64,000 nt of DNA from a virus. Taxonomy: Duplodnaviria; Heunggongvirae; Uroviricota; Caudoviricetes. A program made the position numbers and the translations under genes. The stretch lies in IMG/VR virus record IMGVR_UViG_3300045988_162656; one strand, 5' to 3'. Under the pieces are notes generated by a model that saw only the letters and a program-made list of their open reading frames with translations, was not told the DNA's origin and searched no databases. This document shows, piece by piece, positions 6,528 to 51,088 of this stretch (its first letter is position 1; each line of letters opens with the position of its first letter).

Positions 6528-6666
6528 ATGTTTTCCTTAATGCTTAAACAAGTTGTTTTCTTATTGGCTTTATTGTGATGTGGCATAAAAGGGGAGCAAG
6601 CTAAACGTAAAGGTGCAAACTCTCTATTTCGGTCAACGAAACACAATGGCCATTTGACCCTTGTCA

Positions 6667-12568: not shown

Positions 12569-13213
12569 CTAATGAACGGTCACTCGACCACAGAACCGGT
12601 TTTCTATCTTTTCTACAGCGTTATCTAGCATTCTCATCACTGATCTGGCTCTTGCTTCAACCGTGCGATATCGGTTGGAAACGACGAAGGTTTGCAGATC
12701 CCCCCTTTGCGGATGCAGGTGAATTTTTGTCAGTTCCCCGCACATCAACGCATCAATACGAGCGACATACAGACGGTCTAATGATGCTCGTTGTGATCGC
12801 AAGTAATCTCGCTCTGAGAGAGCGACTCCCGGGCGTAGGCCAGCAATGGCGTTAAAGTTTGAAATAGCAGTTTTGTGGCAAAACTTTTCGATATCGAGGG
12901 CTAACTCAATACATCGATCTTCATTGGTATGGCCGACCAAATCCAACGTGTAGGCCATAACATCAGCAGGTGTGCGATCGATAACAAAGCCTTCAACACC
13001 ACGCGTAAGTAGCTCTATATGCTTTGCGATTTCCATTTGAATCTGAAGCCGCTCATATAGAGGCATAGACTCACCTACTCGAACACCGAGTCGGCTCATC
13101 AAACTTCCGACACCAGCATCCACGTAAGGGATTCCGTAATGTTTGTCGATATATTTTGCCAGGGTTGTTTTCCCACTGCCCTGAGCACCAGTGATCCCAA
13201 TCCGGTAATCCAT
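12569..13213 (-). CDS. P-loop nucleotide kinase (possible dNMP kinase)
   Basis: Walker A GITGAQGSGKTTLAKY at N-terminus; sits in nucleotide-metabolism cluster. Confidence 0.6.
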   Translation of the reverse strand: MDYRIGITGAQGSGKTTLAKYIDKHYGIPYVDAGVGSLMSRLGVRVGESMPLYERLQIQMEIAKHIELLTRGVEGFVIDRTPADVMAYTLDLVGHTNEDRCIELALDIEKFCHKTAISNFNAIAGLRPGVALSERDYLRSQRASLDRLYVARIDALMCGELTKIHLHPQRGDLQTFVVSNRYRTVEARARSVMRMLDNAVEKIENRFCGRVTVH

Positions 13214-25439: not shown

Positions 25440-25705
25440 CACCAGGTGCGCCGAAGGTAGTAAATGCCTGTTTTAATTATTCACATATCCACAGGATAGA
25501 TCCTAATAAAGAGATCCATAGATAGATCCTTATATAGATCAAATAAGATCCCCGATCGCTGTAAGCCGCGCCACGACTGGTCTGAAGTCATGTTCATGTA
25601 TGCTGTCAGCGGTAATTGATAGTCTGTCAGCGGTTCACCGTATGCTGCCAACTGTTTTTGGTATTCTGTCAGCGGCAAATCAAGTATGCTGTCAGCGGTT
25701 GAATG
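25440..25705. promoter_or_regulatory. plasmid-type replication origin: DnaA-box-like site, GATC cluster and upstream iterons
   Basis: ATATCCACA (one mismatch to TTATCCACA) near 25485; five or six GATC within ~70 bp (25490-25560); about 5 copies/partials of TATGCTGTCAGCGGT at 25598-25700. Confidence 0.6.
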
Positions 25706-25719
25706 ACAAAGGTGTCCAC

Positions 25720-26814
25720 ATGTCCACAAAAAATAAAAAAGGTAAAAATAACAAAGAAGTAGAAGATAACATCGACAACTTTGAAGAAGGTTCCCTTGAA
25801 TTGTACACAGGGGAACTTGTCCCTAATAGCAACAATACAGTCCAACCAATTGCGTTGATGCGACTGGGGTTGTTCGTCCCCACGCTTAAGGGAACAAAAT
25901 ACAGTAAACGTAACAAGCCAAATGAGATCGATGCTTCAAAGGAGCTTGTCCAGCTCGAAGTAGCCCGTTCTGAAGGCTATTCCGATATCAAGATAACCGG
26001 TCCTCGTCTCGACATGGATCATGATTTCAAAACGTGGGTGGGCGTTGTGCGTTCGCTGGCAGAATACGGCGAACCTAACGGTCGTGTCGAGTTAAGCATC
26101 ACGAAATTTGCTAAGTTTTGTGGCTATCCATCGTCACAGATCCGCAAAACACTCCGCGACCGGCTTACAAACAGTCTTTTGAAGATCATGCGTACAACTC
26201 TGTCTTTCCAGAGAACGTATGAAGAAAAGAACGTCGACGGCTCTAACAAGATCTCGCTTCTGATGGTGCACCTCATCAATAGCGTGGACTACAACGAGCA
26301 GAAAGATACGGTGGTGTTCTATGCAGAACCGAAGCTGGCCGAACTATATCGCTTTGACCATAAGGTTCTTTTGCAGTTAAAGGTTATCAATAAGCTACCA
26401 CGCAAAGAAACAGCACAGGCTCTGTACACCTTCATCGAAAGTCTTCCAACCAAGCCTGCGCCGGTATCGCTTGCTCGATTGCGTGCGCGACTCAATTTGA
26501 GTAGCAGGAATGTCAGCTCGCAGAATCAGACTATACGTAACGGCTTAAAAGCTCTCCAAGATTTGGGCTATCTCGAATACAGCGAGATTAAGCGTGGGCG
26601 GTCGATCTATATCCAGATTCACAGCCGCAATCCAAAACTCAAAGTCGCACCGCCAAAACCTGAAGACATCGAACCCAAAAAACCAGATGAGAAAGCTGGG
26701 GAAATTGATGCCAAACAGAACATTATCAACAAGATAACCGAACTTTCGCAGAATTTGACGCCTGAAAATATCAAGATGATTGAGATCCTTTCCAATAGTC
26801 TCAAACTGCTTTGA
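25720..26814 (+). CDS. repA: iteron-binding plasmid replication initiator (RepA-like)
   Basis: Flanked by iteron arrays; ORF track start 25600 lies inside an iteron, so start set at ATG 25720 (MSTKNKK) with SD AAAGGTG. Confidence 0.7.
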   Translation: MSTKNKKGKNNKEVEDNIDNFEEGSLELYTGELVPNSNNTVQPIALMRLGLFVPTLKGTKYSKRNKPNEIDASKELVQLEVARSEGYSDIKITGPRLDMDHDFKTWVGVVRSLAEYGEPNGRVELSITKFAKFCGYPSSQIRKTLRDRLTNSLLKIMRTTLSFQRTYEEKNVDGSNKISLLMVHLINSVDYNEQKDTVVFYAEPKLAELYRFDHKVLLQLKVINKLPRKETAQALYTFIESLPTKPAPVSLARLRARLNLSSRNVSSQNQTIRNGLKALQDLGYLEYSEIKRGRSIYIQIHSRNPKLKVAPPKPEDIEPKKPDEKAGEIDAKQNIINKITELSQNLTPENIKMIEILSNSLKLL

Positions 26815-26931
26815 TATGCTGTCAGCGGTGAAATGTATGCTATCAGCGGCTATTTTTCTGAAAAGTATGCTGTGAACGGTTAAAGATATGCTACCAGCGG
26901 TATAGTGAGATGAACGTATGCTGTGAGCGGT
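26814..26931. repeat. iteron array (5 copies) downstream of repA
   Basis: (G/A)TATGCT(G/A)(T/C)(C/G)A(G/A)CGG(T/C) at ~26814, 26835, 26865, 26886, 26916; spacing alternates 21/30 bp. Confidence 0.8.
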
Positions 26932-27090
26932 AAATCATCTATCACCACTCAATGCTCTGTCATACCTCCCCAGTGGTTACTAACCTCGAAGAGTGCATTC
27001 CATATAGGTTTGCGCTCACTAACATTCTATTGCTATTGCGCTGATTGCTTGTAGTGAAAGGCATTTATTGCCTGCTACTCCCTGATAGAA

Positions 27091-27346
27091 CGTATGCTGT
27101 CAGCGGTGTTTTATTGAGGAATTTTTGTTTGGATATGCTATCAGCGGTAATTAATGGCATATGTCAGACATTCGTATGCTGCCAGCGGTAATTTTGTTCT
27201 GGTTATACCCATACCGGTACACATTATTCATGCAATGTCTTAAGTATGCTGTCAGCGGTAAAAAATCGAGTAAAGTATGCTGTGAGCGGTGAGATAGACT
27301 CTCGATATGCTATCAGCGGTAGTTGATTGTGTATGCTGTCAGCGGT
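27091..27346. repeat. second iteron array (about 7 copies), incA-like
   Basis: Same 16-bp repeat at ~27091, 27132, 27174, 27244, 27275, 27305, 27331. Confidence 0.8.
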
Positions 27347-27393
27347 GACGACTATGAAATATGACTGCGGAACGTGCCGCAGTCAGTTTGCAT

Positions 27394-36269: not shown

Positions 36270-39200
36270 TCACGTCTTAATGGTTTCTGCTACGTCGGCT
36301 AATATCGCTTCTAGTCGTTCTCCCTCTTCAGGTCTGAAGTAAAGAATGTTGGGGTTAAACCCGTAAAAGACAGTAACGTCAAGGTCTGGAAGGTACTCCT
36401 TCCTGCCGACCAAATCGGATGGCTTGTTTTTGTTGTTAAACAATGCCGTTGCCCGGCTGCCACACGTCAGCACATAGGTCGGACGCACCAGATTGATCTC
36501 TTCACGTATAAAGTCGGTGAACTGGCCGATCTCGTCTTTGGTGTAGTCTTTTTCTTTGTCTTTAACCTTCTTGCAAACGCCTGTGACATAGAGATCGCCC
36601 ATGCGTAAATCTCCAGCCGTCAATAGCTTGGCCTTAAAGTCGTCGTATCCGTTCTCCATAAAGTAACCGGTTCGAGCATCATTGCCGTTCGCATTGTCCA
36701 GAATGATCATGATTTTCGGCTTAATGCCAATGCTAGGGCGGATTAGTTCATCACCTAATCCCATTTCAGCCGCCATCCGTGTCATGAGCACGTTAATCTC
36801 AGCCGAACGTTTGGGGTTCATCTCAAACGGACGTGAGGCTTTAACTGCGTCTATGACAAGGTTTCCCATCAATTCAGCCTGGTCGCGGAGACGCTCTGGA
36901 TCAGTTGCTGGCAGACTACCTGGCTCGATGGATGCAAACGCACCTACTTTTTGCAGTGATTCGCGCACTCGACTATTACAGGCACGTTTCTCGACAGCTT
37001 CTTCGAATTGCGCCAGTGACTCGAATTTGCCGCCAACTTTTTCTCGCGCTCTCATGATGGCTTGGCAGCCATTCTCAGAACACCCTTTCACAGCAGAGAA
37101 GGGCGCATACAGCACCTGGCTGCCATCTTCAAGCGTGCGGATCTCGATTCGGTTAGATGACACGTTAACGTCTGGTGGCAATACGCGAATACCATAGGTC
37201 AGCGCATCTTTAACCAGCCCCTGGTGTTTATCTTCGCCAAGAATAGTGAGAGCAGCAGCGAAGAACTCCGCGGGATAATGAGTTTTCAACCACATAGATT
37301 GATAACTGATTAAGGAGTAAGCAACAGAGTGTGATTTGTTGAACTGGTAGGCACCATTCTTTTCGAATGCGGTCCAGATCTCCTTCGCTTTCATCTCTGA
37401 TAGCCCTGGATGTGACGCTGTAACGCGTACTGCGTTTATAGGTAGTTTTGCGCCGTACTCAAGTGCCTCTTCGACAGTTTTCAGAGTTCCGTCTTCGCAT
37501 TTAAAATGTTCCGCACGGTGAATGCGCTGTGTAGTGCCATCTTCCAGCTCAACGTCTATCCAGCCAGCTTGAGCCTGAACGATGAACTTCTCGCCCATGC
37601 TCTTCATTTTTTCCATGTCTTTTTTGCCGATCGCTTTACGAACGCCGTCAGCTTCAGCCATTGTGAAGCCAGCAAGCAATCGAGTCGCGTTCATCGTCTG
37701 TTCCTGATAGAGAATCACGCCATTTGTTTCTGCGGTAAGTTCATCAAGAACGGGGTGTAATGATTCCGGCGTCATAAAGCCTTTGGCTACAGAAACATAG
37801 TCATCCAACATGCCTGACTGAATTGGCCCCGGCCGGAAGAGCGCAGTCGTAGCAACAACCGTTTTAAAGCTCATTGGCTCAATTCCACCACCTAAATCTT
37901 TAAGCAGCTTGCGCATTGGGCCTGATTCAAGCTGGAAAACACCTTGAGTGTACCCAGCAGCAAAACCATCCAGCACCTTGCGATCTTCAAGAGAAATGGC
38001 ATCAAGATTGATATCTTCACCTGTGTTCTCTTTTATGTAGCGTTTTGCACTATCGAGCAAATCGAGAGTTGCCAGACCAAGTACGTCCAGCTTAATTAGG
38101 CCCATAGCCTCGCAGTAACGCTTGTCAAATGCGATACAACGCGCGTCACCACGGCGTTCAACCGGTGTACGTTCTGTCAGAGGAACACCTGCTACGATCA
38201 TCCCTGCCGCATGTCTACCAAAGCCACGCATAAGACTTTGTAACTTGCAGGCAGCATTGAATGCATCAGGGTATTTTGTCGCGTATTTGTCGAGACTTGC
38301 CAGTTGTTCGCGCAGCTCCTCCAATGGAAGGCTATCATCCTCGACGTTCTTCAGCTCTTTTGATACCGCCATATCTGCGGACTCCACACCATAAATACGA
38401 GCGGTATCACGTAGTGCTGAGGCTGCGCCCAGGTAGGTGAAGTTCGGAATGCCTGCAACGTAATCTTCGCCGTAGCGTTCATTCAGATACTCGATCACCT
38501 CATGGCGACGTGCCTGGCTGAAGTCCAAGTCCGCATCCGGCAAGTCGAGACGCTCAGGGTTGATGAAACGCTCAAACAGAAGACCGTGACGGATTGGGTC
38601 GACGTTGGTTATGCCTATGCACCACGCCACCAGAGAACCGGCAGAGGAACCACGACCAGGCCCGACAGGAATGCCAGTTTCACGGCTGTGATTCATCAGA
38701 TCGCGTACCATCAGGAAGTAACCACAAAATCCCAGGCGAGTCAGCGTGTCCATTTCGTACTTTAGCCGCTCAACATAAACCCTGTTCTCAGAAGCAGGTG
38801 GTGTGTAGCCAAACTCTTTTGTGGTAAGACGTTTACGCAGCCCTGCAACAGCCAGTTTCATAAGCGTTGCAGGCTCGTCGTCTGCCATCTTTGGCAGTGC
38901 TGGTGGCAATTCATGCCAGCGCCATGTGCAGGCATCGATAATGGTATCCTGCGTTGTTGAGGCCATTGCAGCTGTTACCGGCACATCCATGCGAACGGAG
39001 AAGGTTTTCAGCGCCTCAAGGAGATGGCGGCGACCATTGACGGCGTTATCTCGCTGGTGGGGGATACGCAGACGATGCGGCTGGTCGATTTTGATGTTGT
39101 TCGTAACCATGTGCGCAATGTCTTTAATGTCTGCATCGTCGATCGATTCGTAATAAGCGGGATAGAACGCCACTGGCTCTATTTTCAATGCGCTGGCGAC

Positions 39201-39788
39201 TTTCATCGCCCGGACGTTAATCTGGTCGTAGAATGGGGTAGGGTGCGGATAAACCACACTATAGAAGTTGTCTTTTCCACCCGCTGTAATCAGTGTGCTT
39301 ATGATTTTTGCAAAATCGTTGCGTTGGAACACGCTACCGATGTCGGAAGTGAGCAGGATGATGTTGCCTTTGGCATATGTAGAAACCAACTGTTCGAGCG
39401 AGAGACGCGGTACAAAGTAGAACTGTTCTCGTGTGTTGGCCACCGTCATTAGTTCGCAGATGTCGCGATATCCTTGCTCATTTTTAATTAGAGCGGTAAA
39501 CGAGTAGTTACGTCCTCGCTCTAATGATTCCATACATCCCTTAGACTCTTTAGCAATTTTAGCCCGGTACTCGTATGTGGGATCATCAACAATGTTTAGT
39601 TTCACACCACAAATAACCGCCATGTCGTCACCAGCGGCACGTTGTAGTGGAATAACACTCGCAATATTCATGCTATCTGCCGAAATTACAGCGGTGTAGC
39701 CAGCTTCTCTGGCAATCTTCACCGCGTTTTCTGCTTTTAGAGCCGACTCCCCAAGAGAGAAGTCAGTTCGAACCATCAGAGCCTTCAT
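36270..39788 (-). CDS. dnaE: DnaE-type DNA polymerase III alpha-like replicative polymerase
   Basis: 1172 aa; block GFCGYFLMVRDLMNHSRETGIPVGPGRGSSAGSLVAWCIGITNVDP typical of DnaE family. Confidence 0.9.
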   Translation of the reverse strand: MKALMVRTDFSLGESALKAENAVKIAREAGYTAVISADSMNIASVIPLQRAAGDDMAVICGVKLNIVDDPTYEYRAKIAKESKGCMESLERGRNYSFTALIKNEQGYRDICELMTVANTREQFYFVPRLSLEQLVSTYAKGNIILLTSDIGSVFQRNDFAKIISTLITAGGKDNFYSVVYPHPTPFYDQINVRAMKVASALKIEPVAFYPAYYESIDDADIKDIAHMVTNNIKIDQPHRLRIPHQRDNAVNGRRHLLEALKTFSVRMDVPVTAAMASTTQDTIIDACTWRWHELPPALPKMADDEPATLMKLAVAGLRKRLTTKEFGYTPPASENRVYVERLKYEMDTLTRLGFCGYFLMVRDLMNHSRETGIPVGPGRGSSAGSLVAWCIGITNVDPIRHGLLFERFINPERLDLPDADLDFSQARRHEVIEYLNERYGEDYVAGIPNFTYLGAASALRDTARIYGVESADMAVSKELKNVEDDSLPLEELREQLASLDKYATKYPDAFNAACKLQSLMRGFGRHAAGMIVAGVPLTERTPVERRGDARCIAFDKRYCEAMGLIKLDVLGLATLDLLDSAKRYIKENTGEDINLDAISLEDRKVLDGFAAGYTQGVFQLESGPMRKLLKDLGGGIEPMSFKTVVATTALFRPGPIQSGMLDDYVSVAKGFMTPESLHPVLDELTAETNGVILYQEQTMNATRLLAGFTMAEADGVRKAIGKKDMEKMKSMGEKFIVQAQAGWIDVELEDGTTQRIHRAEHFKCEDGTLKTVEEALEYGAKLPINAVRVTASHPGLSEMKAKEIWTAFEKNGAYQFNKSHSVAYSLISYQSMWLKTHYPAEFFAAALTILGEDKHQGLVKDALTYGIRVLPPDVNVSSNRIEIRTLEDGSQVLYAPFSAVKGCSENGCQAIMRAREKVGGKFESLAQFEEAVEKRACNSRVRESLQKVGAFASIEPGSLPATDPERLRDQAELMGNLVIDAVKASRPFEMNPKRSAEINVLMTRMAAEMGLGDELIRPSIGIKPKIMIILDNANGNDARTGYFMENGYDDFKAKLLTAGDLRMGDLYVTGVCKKVKDKEKDYTKDEIGQFTDFIREEINLVRPTYVLTCGSRATALFNNKNKPSDLVGRKEYLPDLDVTVFYGFNPNILYFRPEEGERLEAILADVAETIKT

Positions 39789-43968: not shown

Positions 43969-44355
43969 ATGTCTGACAAAAACATTGAATTTATAGAAAG
44001 TCGCTATGCTGCTTTTATCGCAGGGCTGATTGAATCCTCACCTATGAGTCAGGCCCAAATAGCCAGACTTATTGGTTATAAAAATGCCAACAACCTTTCT
44101 TTAATTAAAAGTGGTAAAATTCCTTTGCCTATCGATAAGGTTCGTCCGCTGGCGTTGGCGCTGGGTATTGAGCCAAGTCGTCTTATGATGATGGTGCTGG
44201 AAGAACGCCAACCTGAACTCGCAGCATTTTTATACAAAGAAGGCACCGCTCCTCTTAACGAGGACGAAAAACAGGTTCTTGCTGCATATAACGAGCGATT
44301 CGGTAAAGAGAAAGGCGCATCACAAAAGGTTGTTGAGGCCATAAAGTCTCTATGA
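43969..44355 (+). CDS. helix-turn-helix DNA-binding protein
   Basis: HTH-like segment SQAQIARLIGYKNANNLSLIKSGK; perfect palindrome GGTAAGCACTTACC ~30 bp upstream of the start. Confidence 0.6.
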   Translation: MSDKNIEFIESRYAAFIAGLIESSPMSQAQIARLIGYKNANNLSLIKSGKIPLPIDKVRPLALALGIEPSRLMMMVLEERQPELAAFLYKEGTAPLNEDEKQVLAAYNERFGKEKGASQKVVEAIKSL

Positions 44356-45453
44356 AAAATTTAGACGAATAAGCTCTGTTGATAGACGATCTCCCTTGAA
44401 TTTGTGGTCAATTTCGTCTAAATCCGGTTGCTCTACGATTGATGCGATGTACGTTGAGAAACTTTCTAAGGCGTCTCGCATCTCGTCCATATAATCGTGC
44501 CGGTCGTAGACCCGATCTATCCCCTCAAGACTGTGGTTCATTATTTTGCGTGATACCTCCTGGCTTATACCTAATGCTGGGAAGTAACTACGCGCAGTAC
44601 GACGCAAATCTCGAGGTGTAAATGGCGCAAGCTCCATCAGTTCTGGTCGTTCCAGAATACGACGTAATGCCTGGGCTATTGCCACTTTAGACATAGGAAG
44701 GTCTTTCCCGATTTTTTTATTCGAAGGCACGAGCCACTGGCTGTCTTTACCGTATTCGAACAACTCTTCAATGCATGTGCGCATTAATGTGCTTAAAGGC
44801 AGCGAATGCTCACGTGCTGACTTGTTTCTCTTGCCTTGATTCCAAACTCCACGCTTAAGATTGAACTCACTTTTTTTAGCCCTCAGTACTTCGTCAGGTC
44901 GTCTTGCTGATACAAGACACAGCCTGGCCGCCCATTTTGTACCAGCGCACACATTGAAGTAGTCCCATATATTCCAGAACACCCATACCTCTGCGTCGGT
45001 CAGCTTCCGCTCGCGAGGTGTGGGCTTTGCGCCACCGGCAACTTTGTTTAGTGACATATCGTTTAACGGTGACACGTCTATCATCCCCTGGAAGGCGCAC
45101 CAGCTAAGGAACTGCTTCATCAGAGAGAAAACGCGGCGGCCCATAACAATTTTGCCATCCAATATTAGAGGGTTGACCAGTTGGTTAACCATGAACCTAT
45201 TAATGTCACTTACTTTTACATCAGCAATGTGCGGCAAAACATGTATCAAAATACAATGAACAGCGATCTCTGGCCGACGTCTGGTTATCAGCAGAGATAA
45301 GCGAGTGAATAACATGAATGCGTCCGAGAATATCATGTTATTGTTGATCTGTGAGATCATAATGGCCTGCATTTGAGATGCTCTTTCGAGATACTCAATT
45401 GCCTCTTTTGAGGTGTTTTCTGCTGCGCGTGCTCTGTCAAAGCTATTTTTCAT
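44350..45453 (-). CDS. int: tyrosine recombinase / integrase
   Basis: Catalytic-region motifs ARRPDEVLRAK, FTPRDLRRTARSY, MNHS...IDRVYDRHDY (C-terminal tyrosine). Confidence 0.75.
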   Translation of the reverse strand: MKNSFDRARAAENTSKEAIEYLERASQMQAIMISQINNNMIFSDAFMLFTRLSLLITRRRPEIAVHCILIHVLPHIADVKVSDINRFMVNQLVNPLILDGKIVMGRRVFSLMKQFLSWCAFQGMIDVSPLNDMSLNKVAGGAKPTPRERKLTDAEVWVFWNIWDYFNVCAGTKWAARLCLVSARRPDEVLRAKKSEFNLKRGVWNQGKRNKSAREHSLPLSTLMRTCIEELFEYGKDSQWLVPSNKKIGKDLPMSKVAIAQALRRILERPELMELAPFTPRDLRRTARSYFPALGISQEVSRKIMNHSLEGIDRVYDRHDYMDEMRDALESFSTYIASIVEQPDLDEIDHKFKGDRLSTELIRLNFS

Positions 45454-45549
45454 TTATTGGCATTCACCTAGTTACGCTGATCACCTGTATAAGTAACCAG
45501 TATATTAGGCATTGATTCTTTTGGAATCAAGCTAAAATCTTTCATGCGG

Positions 45550-45586
45550 AAAATGATTCCATACCTAAAGAGTATGGAATCATTTT
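45550..45586. terminator. long hairpin, possible bidirectional terminator after esterase gene
   Basis: 14-bp stem AAAATGATTCCATA/TATGGAATCATTTT with T-run on plus side. Confidence 0.5.
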
Positions 45587-45660
45587 TTTCTGTAGAGCTA
45601 GTTTTAAATATTTGATTCGATATGAAGCCAGGCAATTTCATGCCTGGCTGTTACTTTGTG

Positions 45661-47574
45661 TTAGGTTGGGTTGTTGATGCTAATGGTAAGTGTTTCGATA
45701 GCAAGATCATGAGTTTGGTTGTTTGTTATATCTGTTAAAACAAAAGCCTCATCACCAAGAGCAATATTGTCTTTAACCAGCTTGAATTTACTCCCCGCCT
45801 TGCCATCGAGAACGGGAATTACAGTTCCTGTGCCTTTCTCATATTGCAACTCAAGAGTGTGCCAATTGTTGTCGTAGTCACCATATGAGTCTATCTGAAC
45901 ATTTCGATTATTGCCTGTCCTGTGCATCATAATGTTCAACTTGCCTCCAATTGTTTGAAGGAAGAAGTTAGCCAGAAACAGGCTCCCAGTACCGTCGAAT
46001 GATATATCGTCAGCAACAGGTTTACTGGTTTTGTAATATATACCAAAGCCAAACTTAGCTTTTTTTGGATCAGGGTTTCCAGATAATTTAAACTTACAAA
46101 GTAATTTACCTCCATTCTCAAGAAGAGTCTGTGCTATGTCAGTAGCTTTACTGATCGTCCAAGTTTCGTTGGAAACCGCTTTAGTTAAAGCAATTGCTTT
46201 TCCGTTTTCAACTGACTGAATATTTGCACCAGTTACAGTCCATCCTTGTTCAGTAGCGACATCACCACCAGCTCCAGTTAAGGAAATAACCGTTCGCGGG
46301 GTTGGAGTTGTGACAATGTTGTCATTTTTAGGTTGAGTAGGTTGTTCTTGTTTAATAATCTCACCTGTAACGCCATTCACAAAAGCAGATGATTTCGCTG
46401 AATGTGCAAGCAGCGCAGTTGCGAGACGATCAGATATTATTCCGCGTCGCTGCCATGAACCAAAATGACTCTCTCTACTCTCGGAAGTCCATGTTTTATT
46501 ATCCTTGCGATGACCGGAACCATAATAGCCAATAGATGTGATGTCTGGATCATCTGTAGGGCTATTGGTTAATACGTTATTATCATTCTCATCTTTCATG
46601 AATGGAACGAAATAAATTGCTTGTGAGGTTTTTCCCTTATAACCACCATAAACAATTTCGTACTGTTTTGGATATTTGTTTTTCCACCAGTGGGTCGTAT
46701 CGCCACAAATCCAGGGTACATTTGCAGCACTTCCGAAAACACATTGTGCGTCGTATTGAGATAGCTCTTTTCTGAAACCTTCGACCATCTTGAGGAACAG
46801 TTCGTTATGCTGCGAGTACTTGCCAGTTGCCAAATCAGCTTCGCCTTGCATCCAGACAACACCAAGAAATACATTCTTTTTGTTTTTACTTAAGGCCGCT
46901 TTTGTTCTGGCTACAATATCCTTATACAAAGGAGTATTTAATCCCCATTTTAAAGATGATTCGATTGCACCTGACTCTTCATAATATTGGCCTTCAGAGC
47001 CTGTAACAGTGAAACCAGAACCACCTCTTCCGCAAGGAACGAGCAAAATACCTGCGTTTGCTGGAATGAATGGTAATAGTTTTTTGCCAATGTGTAGTCC
47101 CTGACCAACACATCCATATTCAGAGTCGTTTGCTTTTGGATGCTTGAATTTAGTCATGTCTTGTACATCATGAAGACAGTGATCAGCGGGAATTATTTCA
47201 TTGTACTTACAGGCAAAACCACCAGGTTTAATATTGCTGCGTCGAGCTAACTGTTTTACGCGAGGATGTGGCCGATCAAAAGTTTTTGGCATAGGCAGTC
47301 CTTCGCCGTATGACATTGAGTTGGATTGACCTGCGATAGTAACTACATAATAATAGTCAGGCTCTTCATCTTCATTTGATACCGGTGTGGGCAATTGTGA
47401 TAAATCACCAGATCGCACAATTGCTTGATTGTACGCATTTGGTCCGCCCTTACTTGGTTCAACAATGTTTGGTGACTCGAAAGGTTGCCAACCCTCTGCG
47501 ATTTTCTTCGCAAGTTTTTCTCTAAGCTCTTTGCTTGATGATGCTGACAAAATATCATAGTCAATGAATGACAT
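45661..47574 (-). CDS. SGNH-type carbohydrate esterase (sialate O-acetylesterase-like) with C-terminal beta-rich domain
   Basis: Motif YYVVTIAGQSNSMSYG resembles the GQSN block of SGNH/O-acetylesterases; SD AAAGGAG. Confidence 0.6.
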   Translation of the reverse strand: MSFIDYDILSASSSKELREKLAKKIAEGWQPFESPNIVEPSKGGPNAYNQAIVRSGDLSQLPTPVSNEDEEPDYYYVVTIAGQSNSMSYGEGLPMPKTFDRPHPRVKQLARRSNIKPGGFACKYNEIIPADHCLHDVQDMTKFKHPKANDSEYGCVGQGLHIGKKLLPFIPANAGILLVPCGRGGSGFTVTGSEGQYYEESGAIESSLKWGLNTPLYKDIVARTKAALSKNKKNVFLGVVWMQGEADLATGKYSQHNELFLKMVEGFRKELSQYDAQCVFGSAANVPWICGDTTHWWKNKYPKQYEIVYGGYKGKTSQAIYFVPFMKDENDNNVLTNSPTDDPDITSIGYYGSGHRKDNKTWTSESRESHFGSWQRRGIISDRLATALLAHSAKSSAFVNGVTGEIIKQEQPTQPKNDNIVTTPTPRTVISLTGAGGDVATEQGWTVTGANIQSVENGKAIALTKAVSNETWTISKATDIAQTLLENGGKLLCKFKLSGNPDPKKAKFGFGIYYKTSKPVADDISFDGTGSLFLANFFLQTIGGKLNIMMHRTGNNRNVQIDSYGDYDNNWHTLELQYEKGTGTVIPVLDGKAGSKFKLVKDNIALGDEAFVLTDITNNQTHDLAIETLTISINNPT

Positions 47575-47799
47575 AATCGTTACTCCTTTAACGATAAACT
47601 TTAGCTAAAATCGATACGATTTTAGCAGTTAAAAAACGACAATAAAATATAAGAGTAATGTATGAAAGAACAATAAAAATTGCGTAAATGGATATGTGTA
47701 AAATATGTGGAATTTCACACACAGCGTTGAGCGGTCTGGTTTATGTTAGCGGAGTCTTAATCGAGTTGATTAAAAGGCCAAACCGCTCAACGCTGTGTC

Positions 47800-47886
47800 T
47801 GGCGGAGAGTAATGGAATCGAACCATCATCGCTTGCGCAATGGGACGGTTTTCAAGACCGCTTGAGCACCATGCTCCCTACTCTCC
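47800..47886 (-). tRNA. tRNA-Ser (anticodon UGA), type II
   Basis: Hand-folded: acceptor GGAGAGT/ACTCTCC, anticodon arm GCGGT-CTTGAAA-ACCGT, long variable arm, T-loop TTCGATT, encoded CCA; D-arm atypical. Confidence 0.7.
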
Positions 47887-48110
47887 GGCCGTTGTGGTGG
47901 CCGGTACTGAATCTCCGGCATACGGTGCAGCCAATTAGGACTACGGACGATCACCGCTCGCGAAAGGGAAGATTTGCGGCCGCATTTCCCTAACATCCAA
48001 GAAAGCTATCGCATTAGTCTGCGAATCCACCACAACGGTAAGATCACTACCTTTCGACCAGTCATTGTGCACATGAACGACGATTAACCGTAATGATCTT
48101 ATCGTTGTAT

Positions 48111-48186
48111 TGGTGCCGGTTAGCGGACTCGAACCGCTGACATCCTGCTTACAAGGCAGGCGCTCTACCAACTGAGCTAAACCGGC
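48111..48186 (-). tRNA. tRNA-Thr (anticodon UGU)
   Basis: Hand-folded cloverleaf: acceptor GCCGGTT/AACCGGC, D-arm GCTC-AGTTGGTA-GAGC, anticodon loop CTTGTAA, T-loop TTCGAGT, CCA. Confidence 0.85.
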
Positions 48187-48190
48187 AATT

Positions 48191-48277
48191 TGGTGGGGAG
48201 TGATGGAGTCGAACCACCCGAGTTGCAATGACAGTAGATTTACAGTCTACCCAGCTGCCCCTACGGACTAACTCCCC
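48191..48277 (-). tRNA. tRNA-Tyr (anticodon GUA), type II
   Basis: Acceptor GGGGAGT/ACTCCCC, anticodon arm GTAGA-CTGTAAA-TCTAC, long variable arm, T-loop TTCGACT, CCA. Confidence 0.8.
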
Positions 48278-48282
48278 TAAAT

Positions 48283-48357
48283 TGGCGATGGTGGGTGGAT
48301 TCGAACCACCGACCAGTTGGTTAACAGCCAACTGCTCTACCGCTGAGCTACACCATC
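48283..48357 (-). tRNA. tRNA-Asn (anticodon GUU)
   Basis: Acceptor GATGGTG/CACCATC, D-arm GCTC-AGCGGTA-GAGC, anticodon arm GTTGG-CTGTTAA-CCAAC, T-loop TTCGAAT, CCA. Confidence 0.85.
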
Positions 48358-49117
48358 AATTCAGCACTGCCAGTATTTATTACTCAACAGTGCCAATCGC
48401 GGCGGTGTTAGTTTCTGCCAGGAAACGCACCGCTACTTGCACTTTTTCGTTAGTGTCAGACGCTTTCGACTTCTCTCAATAGAAGGCAAAATCTTTAAGT
48501 AGATGATGTTTCTGAGGACAGCACCTACTTTGTAATTTATACAATGTGATGTATGGAATCATTTGTTGTGGAAAAGTGGTTAAACCTACACAACAATCCT
48601 GTCTTCACAACGTTGAGGCCACTACTCCGATTGAATGTTTGCCCAACATGTTACATATCAACGCTCGCCGGTATCTCTGTGAATAGAACCTTAGAATTGA
48701 TAAAAATGTAATGGCCTCAACGTTGTGTGCTGGCTAACCATACCAGCCGGGCTACGTCGCCGCTTTTTAACCCAGTATAAACGACATAATTGAACAAAAT
48801 GACGTAACAGAATGGGCGGTCAGTGGCTAAGAATCCGGGAGTCATATGGAGTTGAAAATATACCGACCGCCCATTCTGTTACTTCATCGGAGGGAACATG
48901 AGTGTTCCCTCCTGCGTTCTGCAATCACACTCGCTCAGTGTGTCCCATTTCGGTAACGAGGCTGGAAACTGACCTCGCTGGTGTTTGGCTTATTAGGCTA
49001 CTGCCAGATAGACTTCTTCGTTTGCACTTGTATTTAAGTTCAAACAGTCGCATCTCAACGAAAACAAAGTCATCTTATACACAAAGGATAAGTAAGTAAA
49101 TACTTATCGATATGTTT

Positions 49118-49408
49118 TTATTCGGTTGTGACTTTTTTGATCAAGGCCACTCTACGACTAGGTGTTCTTGTGATGGTGGCAGTGAATCGTTTCGCTTGGA
49201 TAGTAATGGTTTCGTTCTCCTTAAGTTGCCCGTAGCGAGTTTCCACCAGGGTGCCAAGACGCCACAGACCATCATCGATACGTTTATGACTAGCAAATTT
49301 AATCAGCAACAGTTTTACGACTAACTGACCTACGTAAAAGGCGAATGCGACTCCGACCGCTAAGAAATAGGTGGCCAACCACCAGTCCCAAGAAGTTAAA
49401 TTGCTCAT
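49118..49408 (-). CDS. membrane protein
   Basis: N-terminal hydrophobic helix WWLATYFLAVGVAFAFYV; SD AAAGG. Confidence 0.5.
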   Translation of the reverse strand: MSNLTSWDWWLATYFLAVGVAFAFYVGQLVVKLLLIKFASHKRIDDGLWRLGTLVETRYGQLKENETITIQAKRFTATITRTPSRRVALIKKVTTE

Positions 49409-49553
49409 TTTCTAACCTTTGTTTCATGAACTACCCGATACACACGCTTTCCGATGCACAGTGTTTTGGTTTTAAGTTCCTGCTTAATTAAATCACGACA
49501 GATGCCGAAGCCGATAAGGAAGCCACCAATAAAAGCTAATGAGATGTATGGAA
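49405..49553 (-). CDS. small membrane protein (~49 aa)
   Basis: Hand-translated MIPYISLAFIGGFLIGFGIC...; SD AGGAG 8 nt upstream; stop overlaps next start; not in ORF track. Confidence 0.35.
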
Positions 49554-49769
49554 TCATTTTAACACTCCTGATTCTACTAATTGCTGTAGCAATACTTTCC
49601 CTTTATCAGTTAACTGGTAGTTGGCTGAGCACCACGTTTCCGAAATGTTTGCAACCAACCCTAAACGCTCTAAATTAGCTCGCGTTTTAGGCTTCCAGTA
49701 CTGAGGGAACTCCGGCCACTTACTTATTTCATGAAGCGTTTCTTTCTCCCGTTTACTTAATACGATCAT
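49554..49769 (-). CDS. hypothetical protein
   Basis: ORF track; start overlaps ligase stop. Confidence 0.45.
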   Translation of the reverse strand: MIVLSKREKETLHEISKWPEFPQYWKPKTRANLERLGLVANISETWCSANYQLTDKGKVLLQQLVESGVLK

Positions 49770-51088
49770 TCTTTATCTCCGATTCGATCTTCGGTATCGC
49801 GTAAGCAACGCGGCCATTTCAGTCGTGGGTGGCGTAAGCTGCCATCAGGTGTTTTCTCGTGACAATGAACCTCGACAATACGACCACGGTACTTCTCTTT
49901 GTTGTTCCAGATCTCGTCCAGATATTTATGCTTAATGCCGCTCGCACGAACGATGACGCCGTTTTCAAGACGAATAACTATTTTTCCAAGCGTGTTGGCA
50001 AAACCAGAGTCCGGGTCGCCCGGCTCAAAATCGATAATTTCACCATCTTCTGAATCTTCGTCTTTTAACTTCCACCAGCTGCGGGTACGTTTAAACTCGT
50101 AAACAGAGTTCGGATCTTTGCCCATCTCCCCTTCTTCGTTATCGTCCAGGCGTTTCATGAAGCGTTCGATGAAGTCTTCGTGGCTATGGATGATATAGAA
50201 CGGATGCAGGTGAATGTCTTGTGTGTAGCCTTCACTGCGATCGTTTTTAAACAACGCCACCAGCATAGCCAGGCGCTCTTTCAGCTTCATACCTGTCTTT
50301 GCATACTCTTTGGATTTAGCCTGTGCTCGCCATTCCGGTAGGAAGAAGTCGAAAACATGATAAATAGCGCCAATTGCCTGCACGTTCTTTTTGCGCAATG
50401 CAGATACGGACTGGTTAAATGAACCGGCAGTTCCTTCACCATCGAAGAAGATGTGTTTGTGGCCTGAAAGTTTGCCTAATTCTAGCATTGCTGGCTTTAG
50501 GTGATCGAGAGACGTGATTGGATTACCAGTACGAGAAAGGAAGTTAACCTCTTCCTCGTCAACAATAACCTCGCAAATTACTCGCAAACCATCGAGCTTA
50601 AGACTGCCAATCATCGGCCATTTTGCTTTAGGATTTGGCTTGAAGGGGTATTTGTCGCCTTTTTCTTTATACGGTGACGCCAGCTGCACCTCGAATTTCG
50701 GAATGGGATTTTCAAAAACCTTGTTGCATAGGCTAATCCCAACACCTGCTTTCGGGTCTTTTAAGAGGAAACGACGGAACACGTCCTGCCCATCGGCGCA
50801 CATTGACGCCACGATAGACTCAACAGCTGCTATTGCTGCGTTCCCCGTTAGCTCGCGAGAGGCCAGCTTATTCAGTACATCAATGGCTTTTTCGTCACTT
50901 GGGATGGACTCACTAAGCGGCTCTGCCACTTTGTATTTCTTTACCCCAAAACGGATGAAAGGGTTGAGCATCAATGAAACCATGCTTTGCTCGAAGTCAT
51001 CCATGTTGGCCAATGCCTCTTTTTTTGCATTGGTTCCCATAGCTTTCATTTCGTCCAGCTTATGCTTAAGTGCGATCAACTTTTTCAT
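49766..51088 (-). CDS. ATP-dependent DNA ligase
   Basis: Adenylation motif I KLDG (SLKLDGLRV) and overall size; SD GGAGG. Confidence 0.75.
   Translation of the reverse strand: MKKLIALKHKLDEMKAMGTNAKKEALANMDDFEQSMVSLMLNPFIRFGVKKYKVAEPLSESIPSDEKAIDVLNKLASRELTGNAAIAAVESIVASMCADGQDVFRRFLLKDPKAGVGISLCNKVFENPIPKFEVQLASPYKEKGDKYPFKPNPKAKWPMIGSLKLDGLRVICEVIVDEEEVNFLSRTGNPITSLDHLKPAMLELGKLSGHKHIFFDGEGTAGSFNQSVSALRKKNVQAIGAIYHVFDFFLPEWRAQAKSKEYAKTGMKLKERLAMLVALFKNDRSEGYTQDIHLHPFYIIHSHEDFIERFMKRLDDNEEGEMGKDPNSVYEFKRTRSWWKLKDEDSEDGEIIDFEPGDPDSGFANTLGKIVIRLENGVIVRASGIKHKYLDEIWNNKEKYRGRIVEVHCHEKTPDGSLRHPRLKWPRCLRDTEDRIGDKE

Follow-up and report, generated by a model that had tools for sequence, protein, structure and literature searches.

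A candidate lox-like recombination site with dispersed single arms in SSU5-like phage-plasmids

Introduction

Short palindromic sites beside a tyrosine recombinase are known from Cre/loxP of P1, FLP/FRT, Dre/rox and VCre/VloxP, and Cre/lox serves multimer resolution or circularisation for P1. Here we analyse a 13-bp repeat in a 64,000-nucleotide stretch of viral DNA (IMG/VR record IMGVR_UViG_3300045988_162656; the whole stretch is called the window), in which, as in those systems, a phage-plasmid tyrosine recombinase lies next to a short palindromic site. The window is of the SSU5-like phage-plasmid type: it matches Escherichia phage CMS-2020a and Cyrano, and E. coli and Shigella sonnei plasmids of ~108–110 kb match it at 97–99% identity. 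SSU5-like phage-plasmids are widespread in Enterobacteriaceae, their carriers include E. coli, Shigella, Klebsiella and Salmonella plasmids with CTX-M and other cargo, and their maintenance functions have scarcely been studied. Judged from the sequence and its relatives, the repeat is real and functional and is best explained by an uncharacterised lox-like tyrosine-recombinase system of these phage-plasmids. We consider it likely that the repeat is a binding arm for the tyrosine recombinase that the phage-plasmid itself encodes, with an inverted pair of copies as the core site and single copies as extra half-sites.

Like loxP, the proposed site has 13-bp inverted arms that enclose a short asymmetric spacer; its total length is 33 bp, compared with 34 bp for loxP. 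Like Cre-type enzymes, the recombinase has no arm-binding domain and would be expected to act in multimer resolution or circularisation. Unlike in Cre/loxP, the spacer is 7 bp rather than 8 bp, a loosely conserved accessory stretch adjoins the site, and extra single arms are spread over 10 kb. The recombinase has no detectable sequence similarity to Cre, and its fold is closer to that of lambda Int. Lambda Int with its COC'/BOB' sites and the P4-type integrases are therefore a second point of comparison, and they share with the present system the best structural match, a 7-bp overlap (the length of the lambda COC' overlap region) and 26–33% sequence identity to the P4-type enzymes. In contrast to lambda Int, the PF13356 domain and arm-type sites are missing here, the arms are perfect inverted repeats, and there is no sign of attB integration.

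Three further systems invite comparison. XerCD at cer and psi, and TnpI at the internal recombination site (IRS) of Tn4430 and Tn5401, likewise combine a core inverted repeat with adjoining accessory DNA, are plasmid-borne and have the resolution role expected here; in Tn5401 the TnpI recognition sequence also occurs in the transposon ends, far from the core, and acts in regulation. Unlike at cer, psi and IRS, the accessory region here is short (~25 bp), and the dispersed copies are kilobases away, in genes or at gene starts. In the Rci/sfx shufflon of IncI plasmids the recombinase sites conserve one arm and the 7-bp spacer. The single copies here also have one good arm, but their spacer-equivalents differ, and >80 genomes showed no inversion. 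Around Bacillus subtilis dif, XerD-binding XDS half-sites have a use other than recombination, in SMC unloading (Karaboja et al. 2021). As with XDS, the single half-sites described here match one arm and are dispersed around a full site; the XDS are chromosomal and act on SMC, whereas the present ones are three putative sites on a 109-kb plasmid, two of them overlapping coding sequence.

Results

Copy number of the repeat

The repeated sequence has a 13-nt core, GTATGGAATCATT, of which there are exactly five exact copies, all inside 10 kb of the ~109-kb genome: 39523–39535 and 45552–45564 on the minus strand, and 45572–45584, 48551–48563 and 49546–49558 on the plus strand. A preliminary description of this DNA had recognised four copies at three loci, all of which are present; it missed the copy at 39523–39535 (−), within the open reading frame (ORF) of the DNA polymerase III alpha subunit (PolIII-alpha; 36270..39788), and placed the last copy, given as 49538–49555, ~5 nt too low, since the 16-mer lies at 49544–49559. 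When up to two mismatches are allowed, the 16-mer yields 5 matches against 0.13 expected, and by our own estimate ~0.002 exact 13-mers would be expected in 128 kb of two-stranded sequence. Neither the window nor the other 47 kb of a complete plasmid that is 97% identical to it contains a copy with one or two mismatches; only at three mismatches is there a background of matches. The copy statistics reject chance matches, the possibility that the preliminary description had named as counting against it. Identities as CRP, IHF, LexA, DnaA-box or sigma-70 promoter sequences were also discarded, with poor matches by eye and a promoter scan that was blank at every copy.

An inverted pair upstream of the integrase gene

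Two of the copies form the inverted pair described earlier at 45550–45586, with 13-bp arms (15 bp if the flanking A/T pairs are counted) and the 7-bp spacer CTAAAGA. The pair sits 99 bp upstream of the start of a tyrosine recombinase gene. The features at this locus are as follows.

45552..45584, no strand assigned: full site, AATGATTCCATAC-CTAAAGA-GTATGGAATCATT, 13-bp inverted arms and 7-bp spacer; proposed core recombination site
44350..45453, minus strand: tyrosine recombinase (integrase) of 367 aa; PF00589 at 38.7 bits against a cut-off of 27.1, PHROG 1 at E = 5e-46
45502..45530, minus strand: possible integrase promoter, TTGATT-17 nt-TAATAT, read from the sequence, lying between the site and the integrase start codon; 8 of 12 consensus positions, below the scanner threshold
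45585..45620 (approximate), no strand assigned: accessory region, a T-run and then a AAATCTGAG-like box, which is shifted here (GTTTTAAATATTTGATTCG)

A search with the arm-N7-arm pattern retrieved 96 further loci, in the DNA of seven further species and of 80 viral contigs; the species include Kluyvera, Yersinia pestis (whose SSU5-like plasmids of ~100 kb we take to be pMT1), Buttiauxella and three Chimaeribacter. The 13-7-13 site is 44–100 bp upstream of an integrase homologue (56–100% identity) in 95 of the 96, and the single exception is a site at the extreme edge of the stored DNA. The arms are constant across the loci, except that a single Klebsiella lineage differs in the outermost base. 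At every locus examined the spacer has 7 bp, and it occurs as 12 alleles, most of which read CTAnnWW in one orientation. Two pairs of alleles are exact reverse complements of each other in otherwise identical contexts (ATAGTAG in L053 and CTACTAT in PhiR41_1, L010; TTAATAG and CTATTAA). The integrase and the site are all that Chimaeribacter, Pantoea, Rahnella and Erwinia have in common with the window; they are without the helix-turn-helix (HTH) regulator whose gene adjoins that of the integrase, and in the last three genera the integrase gene and its site stand alone amid unrelated genes. The 13-7-13 site thus has the geometry of lox, FRT and dif sites (arms of 11–14 bp, spacer of 6–8 bp), and it is linked to a recombinase with which it co-evolves.

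The conservation extends beyond the right arm. Among 42 distinct right flanks, which lead into unrelated cargo, there is a fixed-register consensus with a T-run at +10 to +15 and RAAW TCTGAG up to +25. This loosely conserved box suggests that the functional site is longer than 33 bp.

We regard it as very probable, from this sequence evidence, that the inverted pair is the core site of the recombinase. Two recombinase monomers would occupy the arms and exchange strands over the 7 bp between them, as happens at loxP, FRT, dif and the COC' core of lambda. A hairpin of this kind might instead act as RNA, with the pair as a terminator or regulatory hairpin, a reading that extends to the single copies and is taken up with them below. 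However, the T-run that an intrinsic terminator would have after the right arm is present only in the window lineage (GAGG, TAGA, ACTG and others follow the arm elsewhere), and the terminator scanner made no call. In addition, the arms are conserved as sequence and not merely as pairing, and the neighbouring esterase gene already has a GC-rich terminator at 45626–45649.

Covariation of the arms with the integrase

Across 56 homologues of the integrase, the catalytic residues R185, K211, R284, H307 and Y316 vary little or not at all, and an alignment-based AF2 model (pLDDT 86.7) shows a two-domain fold of core-binding and catalytic domains, with the N-terminus modelled as short helices. By its residues and its fold, the enzyme looks active. 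The best Foldseek match to the model is lambda Int bound to COC' (E = 7e-7), followed by Tn1549 Int, XerA/XerH, IntI and Cre, while a sequence search of the PDB gave no match. The integrase is without the PF13356 arm-binding domain that the P4-type integrases, its relatives at 26–33% identity, possess.

The integrase family reaches 44–61% identity in Klebsiella, Serratia, Xenorhabdus, Photorhabdus, Providencia, Rahnella, Pantoea and Erwinia, mostly on plasmids, megaplasmids or contigs of ~100–110 kb, with some homologues on contigs of 0.3–0.9 Mb. An inverted repeat is found upstream of seven of the eight distant-family integrase genes inspected; the Photorhabdus homologue (L240) has none within 300 bp at the search parameters used. 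The Klebsiella and Serratia sites retain the core TGATTCCATAC, and those of Xenorhabdus, Providencia, Pantoea, Rahnella and Erwinia, whose integrases are 44–50% identical, read GTGACTCCAGAC-N7-GTCTGGAGTCAC. In these clades two positions have changed identically in both arms (arm form TGACTCCAGAC), and the architecture is unchanged. The integrase residue 205, which follows the invariant W204 (codon at ~44839–44841) and sits in the beta-hairpin bearing the catalytic lysine, is Asn with GGAATCA arms and Arg with GGAGTCA arms (L231–L242), and it may possibly determine arm specificity. These symmetric arm changes, which track both the integrase clade and residue 205, are the strongest evidence that the integrase reads the arms. 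The two natural specificity classes (TGATTCCATAC with Asn and TGACTCCAGAC with Arg) are possible new lox-like tools. A copy of the motif inside the integrase coding sequence of the Kluyvera, Yersinia and Klebsiella types (codons V-W-N-Q) was set aside as coincidental, largely a matter of codon constraint and unconserved in E. coli.

The covariation also bears on a reading of the motif as an operator for some other DNA-binding protein, such as the HTH putative lysogeny repressor at 43969..44355 (+), in which case the pair would control an integrase or cargo promoter and the single copies would control lytic genes. The HTH gene and the integrase are linked in all SSU5-like clades, distant ones included, and the HTH homologue is expressed in lysogens and is listed as a putative repressor in the Cyrano study; the single copy near the tRNA genes, moreover, lies at a possible minus-strand −35 position, with TATAAA 9 nt downstream. 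Yet the site persists with the integrase alone where the HTH homologue is absent, changes in the arms track the integrase clade and residue 205 of the enzyme, and two of the single copies fall on a start codon or within a coding sequence, not in promoters. The half-site centres are 20 bp apart, a distance that suits a recombinase core better than an HTH dimer. A better candidate for an operator is an intergenic ATAAGTA..TACTTAT palindrome. Taking these points together, we hold the operator reading to be very improbable. More than ten such boxes, ATAAGTA(N5–7)TACTTAT, occur in the window, mainly between operons (3195, 8164, 24613, 32161, 35678, 49085–49107, 55873 and others), and this palindrome is likely an operator or promoter element of the phage-plasmid.

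As to the role of the site, we think it unlikely that it is an attP-type core for integration into the chromosome or another replicon. The integrase annotation, the P4-type enzymes as nearest sequence relatives and the fold match to lambda Int are what such a reading would predict, and some homologues are on contigs of 0.3–0.9 Mb. However, the integrase is without an arm-binding domain and no separate repeated arm-type motif was seen beside the core, so that the site does not resemble a lambda-type attP; perfectly symmetric arms and a freely drifting spacer are hard to square with a fixed attB overlap; the carriers are nearly all plasmids of ~100–110 kb, megaplasmids or contigs of such size; and split sites of the attL/attR kind were not seen. 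The lack of an arm-binding domain, the solo module on unrelated plasmids and megaplasmids and the accessory stretch together make plasmid multimer resolution the most likely role, and the simple enzyme, the symmetric site with its drifting spacer and plasmid carriage favour it over chromosomal integration. On balance we lean towards this role. The putative job of the system would then be to resolve plasmid multimers and possibly to circularise phage DNA, with chromosomal integration less likely. Identification of the cognate site gives a candidate multimer-resolution system and an anchor for the main cargo hotspot of these phage-plasmids.

The cargo hotspot beside the site

The right arm is also a boundary. 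BLAST homology from the integrase side stops at 45584–45586, the outer end of the right arm, in every relative, and it resumes at 47720, or further right in PhiR41_1. Between these boundaries the relatives carry unrelated cargo, the esterase gene in the window lineage and GrxA, YafO, AbiGi, Gp49 or others elsewhere; according to the Cyrano study, the cargo gene beside the site is highly expressed in lysogens. The features to the right of the site are as follows.

45661..47574, minus strand: sialate O-acetylesterase-like cargo gene with the Pfam domains DUF1737, SASA and DUF6645; other cargo in relatives
47800..48357, minus strand: tRNA cluster Ser(tga), Thr(tgt), Tyr(gta) and Asn(gtt), from ARAGORN and Rfam; number varies among relatives

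The preliminary description had taken the copies as marks of module boundaries that bracket the esterase and tRNA segment and a leader without ORFs, and had read them as traces of past recombination. The inverted pair does mark an indel boundary, as had been proposed, and the end of homology and the varying cargo at this pair are what recombination scars would leave. The right end of the variable segment is not the 48.5-kb copy, however, but a common terminator and large hairpin at ~47620–47720 that contain no copy of the motif. Breakpoints in the relatives fall at 47720, 47886/48105, 48218/48281, 49765–49780, ~50100 and 51060; none hits the 48.5-kb or 49.5-kb copy, none is on a single copy in the E. 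coli group, and in close relatives the copies do not enclose segments of variable presence. An integron-like arrangement was not found either, in that the cargo ends at the motif-free terminator and hairpin and multi-gene cargo has no internal copies. Between clades, the DNA beside the two right-hand copies does differ (tRNAs or a 203-aa ORF beside the 48.5-kb copy, and presence or absence of p71 and a 58-aa ORF beside the 49.5-kb copy), which speaks for scars to some extent and lets the looser reading of these copies as module edges survive.

Cargo exchange is not attributable to crossover in the spacer; the arms are a conserved island in a fast-evolving stretch. Two further observations concern this region. 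Related long hairpins at 47716–47801 and 48606–48727, both with CA[AG]CGTTGAG, flank the tRNA cluster and the single copy beside it; homology to the relatives resumes at the first of these hairpins after the cargo, and it is 76% conserved in a distant tRNA-free clade. The breakpoint at 49765–49780 is a 16-bp direct repeat at a 148-bp indel.

The three single copies

The remaining three copies are exact single arms at −6.0, +3.0 and +4.0 kb from the full site, each facing outward.

39523..39535, minus strand: PolIII copy, PolIII-alpha codons 85–89 (CMESL); exact in 80 of 80 PolIII loci and in the distant clade
48551..48563, plus strand: leader copy, non-coding, between the structured leader element and the tRNA cluster
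49546..49558, plus strand: peptide-start copy, covering the start codon of a 50-aa gene, with an ATGA overlap with the stop of a 71-aa ORF
49405..49557, minus strand: 50-aa peptide gene, MIPYISLAFIGGFLIGFGICRDLIKQ..., with one hydrophobic helix and a basic tail; phrog_6302 at E = 5e-36
48476..48562, minus strand: 28-codon ORF, probably not a gene; no Shine-Dalgarno sequence upstream, 6 codons in SSU5/Kluyvera-type relatives

The SSU5-like clades examined, among them a distant clade without tRNAs in which the integrase, CobT and the HTH regulator are only 50–57% identical, all have the three copies. In 63 unique 750-nt sequences of the PolIII 5' region (minimum identity 78%), TGTATGGAATCATT is the longest invariant run at 14 nt, the next being 8 nt, and only 12% of third codon positions are invariant; the amino acids next to CMESL vary, and CMESL itself is constant. 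Xenorhabdus, Providencia and the Klebsiella pKpn type lack both the PolIII motif and the CMESL loop. The leader copy is a conserved island of 14–15 nt, GAT+GTATGGAATCA, within unalignable flanks, and it is found in the E. coli, Kluyvera-type, Klebsiella, SSU5 and distant clades, tRNA-free ones included. In the Klebsiella pKpn type its outer bases (CA) agree with the inverted-pair arms of the same clade. At the peptide start, ATGATTCCATACATC, which encodes MIPYI of the 50-aa ORF as had been described, the codons are fixed as ATG ATT CCA TAC ATC in the SSU5-like clades, while the Klebsiella pKpn type has retained the peptide start with a decayed DNA motif (TTGATCCCATACATT).

The copies are thus ancient, fixed and selected in all SSU5-like clades, one of them inside a coding sequence, which points to a function rather than to recombination scars. 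The view that they are scars of recombination or duplication, with the 48.5-kb copy a remnant of the duplicated start of the peptide gene, draws support from the two right-hand copies, which match over 22 nt with one mismatch (48543–48564 and 49538–49559). The similarity ends there, however, and although the 48.5-kb copy opens the 28-codon ORF as described, this ORF is unconserved and has no ribosome-binding site; in SSU5/Kluyvera-type relatives conservation is limited to the 14–15-nt motif, which is thus a conserved non-coding sequence and not what is left of a duplicated gene. Nor is there a trace of a second arm 7 bp from either right-hand copy, and the spacer-equivalents differ from the spacer of the full site. 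The copies are exact across ~45% divergence of the integrase and CobT, and the PolIII copy is held at synonymous sites. The scar view is therefore largely refuted, and we judge it highly unlikely.

Three rearrangement models were also discarded. If a circle had integrated at the full site and left hybrid sites, these would have second arms, but only 0–4 of 13 arm positions match at 7-bp spacing and the spacers differ. An island model, with the integrase module between direct repeats, is at odds with the deletion in Salmonella phage SSU5, whose ends (43507/48282) are not at copies. In an invertible switch, inversion would split PolIII, and no inverted arrangement was seen in >80 loci. The order and orientation of the copies are identical in 80 PolIII-anchored loci and in the distant clade, so that a shufflon is not indicated. 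As a separate observation on SSU5 (L009, 8527–8692), the whole block of the 70-aa ORF, HTH putative repressor, integrase, site, cargo and three tRNAs is missing there, as expected if this phage isolate has lost its lysogeny module. A relic copy at 13162 in PhiR41_1 has flanks without informative homology.

The reading in terms of RNA, which would make the pair a terminator or regulatory hairpin, has its better evidence at the single copies. With all the genes involved encoded on the same (minus) strand, 15–20 nt at the PolIII copy are complementary to each of the other single copies; the PolIII mRNA, with GAUGUAUGGAAUCAU, would pair with the translation start of the peptide gene, AUGAUUCCAUACAUC, and the leader copy would be a mimic. 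The flanks of the copies co-vary, the complementarity reaches 20 nt in the Cyrano lineage, and the substitutions observed are all wobble-compatible transitions. Across clades, the PolIII and peptide-start copies are present together, or absent or decayed together, and the 50-aa peptide resembles type I toxins in size and shape. Against this, the integrase dictates the arm sequence even on plasmids that have neither PolIII nor the peptide gene. Together with the properties of the inverted pair given above, this makes the RNA reading as a whole improbable.

Under the recombinase reading, the single copies would bind recombinase monomers for a regulatory or architectural purpose other than recombination. 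That they are bound by the recombinase is a tentative proposal, and with modest confidence we rank half-sites with a non-recombination role above mRNA–mRNA pairing as the explanation of the single copies. More speculatively, the single copies could be parts of a network that ties the recombinase site to lytic replication genes, either through half-sites or through PolIII–peptide mRNA pairing over 15–20 nt. If either version of this network were true, the recognition sequence of a recombinase would be written into the coding sequence of a polymerase and held there by selection, and half-sites at synonymous polymerase positions would be an unusual DNA signal that overrides codon drift.

Several observations weigh against the recombinase reading, in whole or in part. 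SSU5 and the viral contig L154, which are without the integrase, retain single copies with 0–2 mismatches, and single copies are missing from relatives of the other arm type (over 100 of the 103 kb of a Moellerella plasmid and within ±6 kb at four other loci), so the single copies are not general to the recombinase family. Within a genome the single copies share the GAT extension and similar 7-nt flanks, which the full-site arms do not; in the Cyrano lineage the PolIII and peptide-start copies are identical over 20 nt, and minus-strand RNA of the PolIII copy is complementary to the translation start of the peptide gene. No deletion or inversion junctions between any two copies were found in ~170 loci, which accordingly provide no demonstration of natural recombination at the site. 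The 100 bp to the left of the site are 79–91% identical between the window lineage and the Cyrano type (79% here); since this flank is itself diverged, the esterase cargo was not simply swapped at the site, and cargo turnover may be ordinary homologous or illegitimate recombination beside a constrained element. In the enzyme, the first catalytic His of HxxR is Arg (R281) in this integrase family. Finally, neither the motif nor a site of the SSU5/pMT1 integrase is described in the searchable literature.

A structured non-coding leader element

The region that the preliminary description had called an ORF-free leader is indeed non-coding, but it holds a conserved structured element.

48700..49110, minus strand: conserved structured non-coding element, between the 96-aa ORF and the tRNAs

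The element is 79% identical to that of the SSU5 type and 72% to that of the distant clade, and is thus conserved like coding genes. In a small sample, nine sequences from three clades, a multi-helix fold with 60 predicted pairs is 98% paired, compared with 27–43% in slid controls. Compensatory changes occur at nine pairs, many G-U pairs form on the minus strand, and in one hairpin the sequence has been replaced with the pairing retained. There are also invariant single-stranded blocks, for example CTGGCAGTAGCCTAA..AGCCAAACACCAGC. A search of 45300–50000 against Rfam returned tRNAs only, the element matching no family, and it is a candidate for a new RNA of SSU5-like phage-plasmids. Immediately upstream of it is one of the ATAAGTA..TACTTAT boxes.

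Genomic setting and minor observations

On the minus strand the local order is DNA ligase, the 71-aa ORF, the 50-aa peptide, the 96-aa ORF, the non-coding leader and the four tRNAs, followed by the esterase, the integrase, the plus-strand HTH regulator, a 70-aa ORF, CobT, CobS and DNA polymerase III alpha. SSU5, Cyrano and several plasmids have a further ORF, of 58 aa, between the ligase gene and the 71-aa ORF; the window lacks it. Several E. coli relatives carry an ISEcp1-blaCTX-M-15 unit in the ligase gene region (L006, NZ_CP101923.1, 7806–10199, corresponding to about 50100 of the window); the insertion is a few hundred bases from the peptide-start copy and away from any copy of the motif.

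Two other repeats were noted in the window. At 25594–27353 there are at least 14 iteron-like repeats, GTATGCTGTCAGCGGT, in two clusters, presumably the origin of plasmid replication around repA. Another dispersed motif, TTTAAACAAGTTGTTTTCT, occurs at 6543, 7250, 17489, 31011, 55095 and 58331, often near conserved ribosome-binding contexts (CATGTGTTTTTCCTTTTGT on the plus strand, that is, ACAAAAGGAAAAACACATG at gene starts), and looks like a shared promoter or leader of minus-strand operons.

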